From Escherichia coli (GTDB lineage Bacteria > Pseudomonadota > Gammaproteobacteria > Enterobacterales > Enterobacteriaceae), in the NCBI RefSeq assembly GCF_045037415.1, contig NZ_CP173438.1: a stretch of DNA of 64,000 nucleotides. One strand, given 5' to 3'. Shown here piece after piece: positions 1,811 to 2,761 of this stretch (position 1 is its first letter; each line of letters starts with the position of its first letter). Under the pieces are notes generated by a model. That model saw only the letters and a list, made by a program, of their open reading frames with translations, was not told the DNA's origin and made no database searches. Both the position numbers and the translations under genes were made by a program.

Positions 1811-2761
1811 ATGTATAGCCCATATTTGTATGCGAGAAGTACAGAGTTATTATGCCTTAGGGACCTCGTTGCGAAGGGAGTTAGCCTAAATGGTCTGCTA
1901 CCAATTTTAGAACCAATTAACGTCAATACGAGAAATTTATTAACATGTTTAAATGTTTGGAATTCTGACATAATTGTTATCCTTAATCCTTATCAGGAAG
2001 ATTTTTCTTCACACAATAACGTCTTAACTTTAAATCAAAATTTATCAAGTGTATTAACAAATAAAAATAATATCATCTCTGGATATCTTATTCAGCCCAA
2101 TACAACGATTAATGATATTAATAATTGGTTGAATGCTAACTTAAATAGACGAGTTGCACTTCTATATGATAATCCATCATTATCCAACTCTGATATTCAG
2201 TTGTTGGCGACAAATCAATTGATTAGTTATCATGTTGTTTTAAATAATAAAATGCTTCCTAATCAGTGCGCTCTTCTTCCTTTGTCGAAGTTAATTATTA
2301 TTAGCGATAACTTTAGAAAGTTAGCAAAAAATGCTGATTATAATGGGCCGGAACTTTTCACGCACGCACATCAATTCGTGGGACAAAATTACTTAGGATT
2401 TGGCGATTATACAATTACTGGCCAGGTACTAGATCTTGGAGGTGGTCAACCTTCTGCTGTTGCCGCACATTTGGTGTTCAAGAATTTACAAGCGAATACA
2501 GTTTGGATTCGTCATTTTGTATCAAGCAACACGCAACGAGGAAGTTCAAATGTTACTGCAAAATTTTTAGATGTTTCAGATCAAATTACAAATCTTGTTC
2601 CCCAACATCCAACCCAGTTTGGCAGCAACATTGGTCTTAACTATTATTATTACAATAGTCAACCAACTGTAAGGCATTTCCCTGGGTTGCCAAAAAACAA
2701 ACAGTATCAAATTACTCACCATATTTGTTTCATGCTGGATTTAATAGCAGGTCGTATTTAA
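1811..2761 (+). CDS. Hypothetical protein (316 aa); cassette gene B
   Basis: ORF 22 bp downstream of gene A, same strand and AT-rich composition; N/S/L/Q-rich; no recognisable catalytic motif; 3' end overlaps the integrase 3' end. Confidence 0.6.
   Translation: MYSPYLYARSTELLCLRDLVAKGVSLNGLLPILEPINVNTRNLLTCLNVWNSDIIVILNPYQEDFSSHNNVLTLNQNLSSVLTNKNNIISGYLIQPNTTINDINNWLNANLNRRVALLYDNPSLSNSDIQLLATNQLISYHVVLNNKMLPNQCALLPLSKLIIISDNFRKLAKNADYNGPELFTHAHQFVGQNYLGFGDYTITGQVLDLGGGQPSAVAAHLVFKNLQANTVWIRHFVSSNTQRGSSNVTAKFLDVSDQITNLVPQHPTQFGSNIGLNYYYYNSQPTVRHFPGLPKNKQYQITHHICFMLDLIAGRI

Follow-up and report, generated by a model that had tools for sequence, protein, structure and literature searches.

An sce7726/sce7725 cassette that overlaps the integrase gene at the right border of a P4-like satellite hotspot in Escherichia coli

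Satellites of the phage P4 type carry a defence hotspot between the integrase gene (int) and the cos/psu end of the element (Rousset et al. 2022, PMC9122126; bioRxiv 10.64898/2026.02.27.708500). In the sections of PMC9122126 that deal with these hotspots, the capsid imposes a limit of about 12 kb, the hotspots are described as small (2.6 kb on average) and their cargo is found in either orientation, while the core markers used in published surveys are psu, delta, sid, alpha and int. The same sections report that the Gop-beta-cII system of phage P4 itself protects against lambda and P1, and rapid swapping of the cargo by local recombination has been described more recently in the corresponding part of bioRxiv 10.64898/2026.02.27.708500. 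Here we analyse a window of E. coli DNA (the whole stretch of 64,000 nucleotides that was available to us) that contains a locus of this kind, with particular attention to the point at which the last cargo gene and int meet tail to tail; the features of the locus are collected in Table 1.

Table 1. Features of the satellite locus in the window, in order of position
Feature	Coordinates	Strand	Basis or remark
ogr/Delta-like zinc-finger gene, 3' part	1..228	+	Pfam PF04606, 1.4e-6
Conserved non-coding left flank	229..585		conserved in four satellites with different cargo
Cargo-specific AT-rich leader	586..907	+	unalignable with relatives; presumed site of the cassette promoter
Gene A, sce7726 family (P4 cII family)	908..1789	+	NCBIfam NF033832, 9.6e-52; PADLOC 'cll', 1.2e-18
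Gene B, sce7725 family, 316 aa	1811..2761	+	NCBIfam NF033831, 1.1e-71
Tail-to-tail overlap, 21 bp	2741..2761	both strands	two frames codon-aligned antisense
Variable int 3' end (right hotspot boundary)	2741..2836	-	sliding identity
P4-type tyrosine integrase gene (int), 391 aa	2741..3916	-	Pfam, NCBIfam PRK09692 and RefSeq CDS
tRNA-Arg(CCU) gene, argW	4077..4151	-	ARAGORN; Rfam tRNA, 63.4 bits; yfdC-mlaA-fadL synteny

The satellite at argW and its cargo

The region forms the right-hand end of a P4-like satellite whose insertion site is the gene for tRNA-Arg(CCU) (argW), which lies 160 nt upstream of the start of int with its 3' end facing int. In strains with identical sequence the element occupies about 10.5 kb between dsdC and argW and comprises, in order, genes for an HTH regulator, a 'P2 family major capsid protein', an Icd-like protein, a DUF927 primase and an ogr/Delta-like protein, followed by the two cargo genes and int; the ogr/Delta-like coding sequence begins 44 nt before the window (RefSeq L001 13357-13629, corresponding to window -44..228). 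The satellite markers that are present are int, the ogr/delta-like gene and the DUF927 primase gene, and psu and sid are not annotated (L001). An annotated P2 family major capsid gene in an element without annotated psu and sid (L001 7188-13074) is unusual for a P4-like satellite. The primase gene is frameshifted in the ST131-type copy and intact in L002 and L003, so that the ST131-type copy may no longer replicate.

The order of the locus is ogr/delta-like gene, conserved cos-like block, cargo, int and tRNA-Arg, and the segment from about 586 to about 2776 is the known defence hotspot of P4-like satellites, lying between the cos-like site and int. Its left border is sharp, the four satellites compared being conserved up to 585 and unalignable from 586 onwards. 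At its right-hand edge the conserved flank has a cos-like core with a short hairpin, AAACCGCAGGCGGGTGCGGTGTAGTGCCGTTTT (about 552-584); the same 33 nt recur unchanged in three E. coli prophage-like regions (L097-L099), and the core can be aligned with the P4 right (cos) end, while terminator-like motifs are found on both strands at 554-581. Together with the cassette leader, the cos region makes up part of the 680 bp of non-coding DNA that separate ogr from sce7726. The longer block 425-585, which can also be aligned with the P4 cos end, is 76-79% identical to L097 5501-5661, L098 5501-5660 and L099 5501-5657, sites at ybjL and mntR-ybiR that neighbour genes for tail and baseplate proteins and that are themselves adjoined by variable genes (for a PIN protein; for DprA and two others; for a serine acetyltransferase). 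This block is probably a cos site shared by the satellite and its helper phage, each with a hotspot next to it.

The diversity of the cargo at this position is considerable. Other E. coli satellites at argW with near-identical core genes carry SLATT+RT, retron Ec48 or PARIS (AAA ATPase + DUF4435). DprA + HAD hydrolase occur in a satellite that shares the core genes, sits elsewhere in the chromosome and has a degraded int, and relatives in other genera carry Shedu, Septu PtuB, GmrSD_N/HNH, HEPN and DzbB-like proteins as well as unknowns. In the window the GC content is 33.6% in the cassette (586-2761), 46% in int (2762-3916) and 51.5% in the chromosome (4200-64000); the cargo, foreign DNA with a strong AT bias, could plausibly be targeted by H-NS. 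We rejected an integron gene cassette as a description of the variable block, as the XerA/integron-integrase model reaches 50 bits against a cut-off of 220 and flanking repeats do not exceed chance, and a transposon- or integron-like insertion with flanking repeats was likewise rejected because repeats occur only at the chance level. The best inverted repeat (521-535 / 2728-2742, 13 of 15 positions complementary, arising in 2 of 200 shuffles) was noticed only after the fact, and the relatives in Providencia, Morganella and Yersinia that share this cargo lack it.

The cargo of the window consists of an sce7726 gene (gene A) and an sce7725 gene (gene B). Gene A encodes a PD-(D/E)xK-like motif (D107...E119-x-K121); P4 cII matches the same two models as gene A (NF033832 at 2.5e-44 and PADLOC 'cll'), and BLASTP aligns the two proteins with 39% identity over 61 aa. 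The link of the cargo to phage resistance is at the family level only, through the match of gene A to PADLOC 'cll'. Gene B has neither a PADLOC match nor a direct HMM match to P4 beta, BLASTP of sce7725 against P4 beta is not significant and a profile compared with the single sequence gives a weak result; a profile-profile comparison by hhalign of the sce7725 family with the P4 beta family (PF14350) yields a probability of 62.6% and an E value of 7.2e-5 over 252 columns. Based on these profiles, sce7725 is probably a remote homologue of P4 beta, though not securely so. An AlphaFold (AF2) model of sce7725 has a pLDDT of 91.5, and a Foldseek search of the PDB with this model returned weak, generic TIM-barrel matches with E values of at least 6.5e-3, the top one being a UV damage endonuclease.

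The sce7726/sce7725 pair is kept in Hafnia, Providencia, Yersinia, Morganella and Pseudomonas and is a two-gene unit in every context examined, with no third gene between 586 and 2761. Seven papers name sce7725 or sce7726 and, judged by title and abstract, none of them is a functional study. On the evidence of family membership and position, the pair looks like a candidate defence system, a co-directional relative of the P4 beta-cII genes without gop that resides in a defence hotspot. The single promoter-like match near the leader (891-919) extends over the start codon of sce7726 at 908, and no convincing cassette promoter was identified within the leader. In some E. coli genomes IS1 lies in or beside sce7725: in NZ_AP022549.1 the annotation gives the gene in two parts with an IS1 transposase between them, and in NZ_CP124420.1 an IS1 transposase lies under the match to 1811-2761.

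The junction of cargo and integrase

An earlier note on this DNA had described a 21-bp overlap between the convergent 3' ends of gene B and int, and this overlap is real, the two genes sharing 2741-2761 (1811-2761 on the + strand, 2741-3916 on the - strand). The shared segment reads TTAATAGCAGGTCGTATTTAA; its + strand encodes L I A G R I followed by the stop that ends the 316-aa frame, and its - strand encodes L N T T C Y followed by the int stop at 2741-2743. The two frames are so aligned that the gene B stop TAA pairs with the Leu-386 codon TTA of int, while the int stop TAA pairs with the Leu-310 codon TTA of gene B. The same two coding sequences with the same 21-bp overlap are given by RefSeq/PGAP on identical DNA (L001 15212-16162 and 16142-17317). 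Moreover, the int/junction stretch is found at 99% identity or more in 421 of 5,426 complete E. coli genomes, among them EC958 and other ST131 strains, and among the matches listed in this band all are 100% identical over the full 1,351-nt query. The sequencing or assembly error that the note had considered as a possible source of the junction is hard to reconcile with identity across hundreds of independently assembled genomes; taken with the PGAP coding sequences and the homologous junctions in other genera, this rules out an artefact, be it mis-assembly, a stop-shifting sequencing error or a miscalled reading frame, with near certainty. For annotation, then, the overlap is not an error.

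Both proteins are covered end to end by family models (residues 2-311 of 316 in sce7725 and 3-387 of 391 in Int), and the two differ in how their last residues are conserved. Gene B has the C-terminus native to its family (...HHICFMLDLIAGRI): among 73 sce7725 homologues most full-length members are 306-321 aa long, and in 25 aligned homologues of 24-93% identity the C-terminal motif PGLPKNK..Q..HH..LM.D...GR[IL] is kept to the last residues. As the C-terminus is conserved across the family, the stop at 2761 is native. The same conservation rules out, for sce cargo, that it is the frame of gene B, and not that of int, which reads through; in PARIS-carrying relatives the end of AriB does overlie conserved int codons.

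In Int the Pfam domains Arm-DNA-bind_3 (PF13356), Phage_int_M (PF22022) and Phage_integrase (PF00589) are all matched, and the match to PRK09692 spans profile positions 8-394 of 413, leaving the final 19 profile positions unmatched. We compared the gene with seven related int genes by sliding identity in 60-nt windows. Up to about nt 1080 of int, identity is 88-100% to the closest three relatives (L002, L003 and L005) and 63-100% to the four more distant ones; in nt 1081-1140 (window 2777-2836) it is down to 65-80% in all seven; and in nt 1141-1176 (window 2741-2776) it is at the background level, all similarity being lost over the final 36 nt of the gene. The module that is exchanged therefore has its right border inside int, with similarity collapsing about 36-95 nt before the int stop, and the variable module extends over the last 12-30 codons of int. 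The abruptness of the drop, set against 93-96% identity elsewhere, suggests that diverged DNA was imported by recombination and not that constraint was relaxed.

At the protein level the conserved core of Int ends at MMxWY-x-x-x-[L/I], the codon of the last conserved Leu being the complement of the sce7725 stop. Past the WY motif the tails run for 5 to 13 residues and are unconserved in length or sequence among the relatives; in L004 (...SDLIM) and L003 (...DHILI) the protein stops immediately past the motif. More distant members of the integrase family have a conserved tail of about 20 aa (YLDxLKxGGNVVP...) and spacers of 140-226 bp to the next gene. The Int of P4 itself (L085 2607-2720, - strand) has a 37-residue Lys/Asn-rich tail past a WWADYLD motif; as in the window, the frame seems to have read on into AT-rich DNA of the hotspot. 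In a sister integrase clade of 60-65% identity (loci L018, L020-L022, L025, L031, L033-L036 and L038) the next gene is co-directional and either overlaps the int stop by 8-34 bp or begins 2-6 bp after it, which is another tight junction in a different element architecture.

The C-terminal tail of a tyrosine recombinase can contact neighbouring protomers, and such tails modulate lambda Int and related recombinases. It might be supposed, then, that each cargo, by rewriting the extreme C-terminus of Int (LNTTCY in the window), tunes recombination according to the identity of the cargo, and the inclusion of the last codons of int in the variable module, with tails that differ with the cargo, is in line with this. 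Yet the tails past WYxxx[L/I] are conserved in neither length nor chemistry, some integrases (L004 and L003 above) end right past the motif, and all tail variants are found within the same int clade, at the same tRNA site and in many genera, so that the tail appears to be dispensable; we regard such an effect at the protein level as highly improbable.

The length of the overlap can be judged from the composition of gene B, in which the codons TTA, CTA and TCA, which read as stops in the codon-aligned antisense frame, make up 9.2% of the total. Under a random-stop model about 11 read-through codons would be expected in the int tail and 6 are seen, and the 21-bp length is accordingly not beyond chance once the genes abut; it is the lack of a spacer that is beyond chance. 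This lack emerges from a sample of 20 related loci with about eleven unrelated cargoes, in which the int-proximal cargo gene converges on int in every case: the genes overlap by 4-30 bp in 15 loci, are separated by at most 26 bp in four and by 84 bp in one. By cargo, the values (+, overlap; -, gap) are +21 bp for the sce7726/sce7725 cassette of the window and +27 bp for each of its counterparts in Morganella (L013), Providencia (L089) and Hafnia (L088, with an int remnant), where the sce7725 stop lies opposite the same int Leu position; -84 bp for the Yersinia counterpart (L091), whose AT-rich spacer lacks a terminator; +20 and +20 bp for SLATT+RT; +4 and +4 bp for retron Ec48; +22 and +16 bp for PARIS; +11 bp for an unknown of 111 aa; -15 and +4 bp for an unknown of 487 aa; +17 bp for DzbB-like; -26 and -5 bp for GmrSD/HNH; -17 bp for Shedu; +4 bp for HEPN; and +30 bp for PtuB. 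Seven convergent pairs of chromosomal genes from the same genomic region are spaced at +4, -32, -59, -61, -107, -120 and -158 bp, giving a median of -61 bp as against +11 bp at the satellite junctions (Mann-Whitney p ~6e-4, or p 1e-3 with one value per cargo type).

The description of the cargo in the earlier note as tightly packed against int thus holds and can be extended to the whole clade, 19 of the 20 junctions falling within 30 bp. The note had also raised the question of conservation in related islands, and the answer is that the overlap recurs with the same cargo, at 27 bp, in Morganella, Providencia and Hafnia; a spacer in all of the related islands, which would have spoken against its reading, is not what we find, since Yersinia has one of 84 bp and most loci overlap. 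A fixed insertion site in int was considered and rejected, since the cargo stop keeps no constant distance from the WY codons: it may lie as much as 4 nt inside them or as much as 47 nt past them, and in Yersinia it lies 117 nt past them. Neither the overlap with int nor a border inside int is described in the hotspot sections of PMC9122126 and bioRxiv 10.64898/2026.02.27.708500, and a literature search for convergent int/cargo overlaps returned nothing relevant. The recurrent overlap and the border inside int are small additions to the known picture of the hotspot.

Proposed compaction and cassette exchange, and possible coupling

We then consider what kind of process might underlie such junctions. 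A scan for terminators within 120 nt, on both strands, of 19 related satellite junctions and the seven chromosomal convergent pairs found terminator-like sites on 0 of 38 strands at the former and on 9 of 14 at the latter, which bears out the remark of the earlier note that there is no room for separate terminators. At the junction of the window, folding of 2690-2810 shows no excess of structure over shuffled sequence (z +0.8 and +1.6 for the two strands), and no Rfam family matches there. The nearest terminator candidate on the + strand is a weak one inside int (3097-3119), and the nearest on the - strand lies beyond the whole cassette (571-554). With the nearest terminator-like motifs so distant, simultaneous transcription of the two genes would give long complementary RNAs.

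In light of this, the suggestion that convergent transcription couples the expression of the cassette to that of int is a physically plausible proposal, and as far as the sequence allows a judgement such coupling is possible. In its stronger form it holds that the coupling has been selected, the terminator-less tail-to-tail junction tying the expression of int, and so excision, to that of the defence cassette by antisense read-through of int or of the cassette, the route being either transcriptional interference or the cutting of paired 3' ends by RNase III; in function this would correspond to the sib retroregulation of lambda int. The uniform lack of terminators at the related junctions and the distance to the nearest candidates would fit this, as would the convergent orientation over about eleven cargo types and the retention of the overlap in four genera with the same cargo. 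On the other hand, the junction has no conserved sequence or structure, its spacing ranges from -84 to +30 bp, with the cargo stop between 4 nt inside and 47 nt beyond the WY motif, and the Yersinia relative has a spacer of 84 bp; furthermore, the absence of terminators is predicted by compaction alone, and AT-rich cargo lowers the odds of GC stems anyway. We therefore consider selected coupling rather unlikely. A still more specific version, in which read-through from a constitutively expressed defence operon would keep the satellite integrated by shutting int down through antisense transcription or RNA pairing, and in which induced int would conversely damp the cassette during mobilisation, seems to us quite unlikely. 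Were it true, each swap of cargo would rewire both the 3' UTR of int and the C-terminus of Int.

The overlap is more simply explained by compaction together with the swapping of cassettes, as the int tail within it is unconserved and its length is what a random stop gives. We propose, and think it likely, that the junction is the right border of a swapped cargo module shaped by these two processes, and that the length of the overlap is incidental. Cargo would be exchanged by recombination, with the right-hand crossover falling within the 3' end of int. Under the small-capsid limit, spacer DNA being presumably functionless, the gap between the last cargo gene and int would have been lost; a dispensable tail of Int would likewise have been lost, and variable DNA would have encroached up to the end of the int core. 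The int frame would then run on through sce7725 in antisense, taking up the unconstrained codons NTTCY, until it met the complement of a Leu codon TTA. If both promoters fired, the transcripts would have to collide, as neither gene has an intrinsic terminator, and any resulting regulation would be a side effect and not the reason for the arrangement.

Several observations sit less comfortably with compaction and swapping. Compaction is not extreme elsewhere in the element, as the 680 bp of non-coding DNA between ogr and sce7726 attest. That about eleven cargo types are all convergent with int, when published hotspots have cargo in either orientation, may reflect a rule of orientation and hence some function. 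The persistence of the junction across Escherichia, Morganella, Providencia and Hafnia, among which the cargo proteins are about 60% identical, could be due to selection as well as to inheritance, and the systematic absence of terminators is also a prediction of a selected antisense mechanism.

Comparison with known systems

The locus places a region of E. coli, identical in ST131 strains such as EC958, in a known defence hotspot of P4-type satellites. As the exchangeable module extends at its right border into the int gene, the last cargo gene routinely overlaps int, and with this position of the border neither gene has a terminator of its own. This matters wherever hotspot systems are delimited or cloned, since the 3' end of the cargo carries int codons, and wherever recombination breakpoints are to be detected. 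A genuine link between the expression of defence genes and the excision of satellites, should it prove real, would be of wider interest.

Like the described P4 hotspot, the locus has an AT-rich stretch of variable content, about 2.2 kb long, which is flanked directly by a cos-like site on one side and by a P4-type integrase gene on the other; related elements carry PARIS, retrons, Shedu, parts of Septu and DprA+HAD at the same place, and the cargo differs between elements with near-identical core genes. It differs from the P4 hotspot elements in that psu and sid are unannotated and a P2 family major capsid gene and a DUF927 primase gene are present, and from the published hotspots, as the relevant sections present them, in that the cargo of the 20 loci is always convergent with int and not in either orientation.

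Among retroregulated integrases, the sib site of lambda int is a defined RNase III hairpin downstream of the gene. The junction resembles sib in that the 3' end of the int transcript lies in sequence that may be paired or processed, so that events downstream could set the level of integrase. Unlike sib, there is no stable structure at 2690-2810, and pairing here would be intermolecular, between convergent transcripts. Ordinary convergent overlaps such as yfcJ/flk, a pair from this part of the genome, are similar in that the last codons are shared and the stops serve as Leu or Ser codons on the other strand; yet the yfcJ/flk overlap is of 4 bp, whereas here it is of 21 bp and recurs at 4-30 bp with unrelated partners at a fixed position of a mobile element.

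The closest described cargo is Gop-beta-cII, which is likewise found in a P4-type hotspot, and to which gene A is related as a member of the P4 cII family and gene B as a probable homologue of beta, whereas sequence identity is low and no gop gene is present. In the window the two genes are co-directional with the cII-like gene first, while in P4 (L085 651-2540) beta and cII converge on a shared terminator; furthermore, in P4 cII follows int co-directionally after a 66-bp gap, unlike the junction of the window. The sce cassette is thus related to the Gop-beta-cII system and yet is not one, gop being absent and the gene order different.
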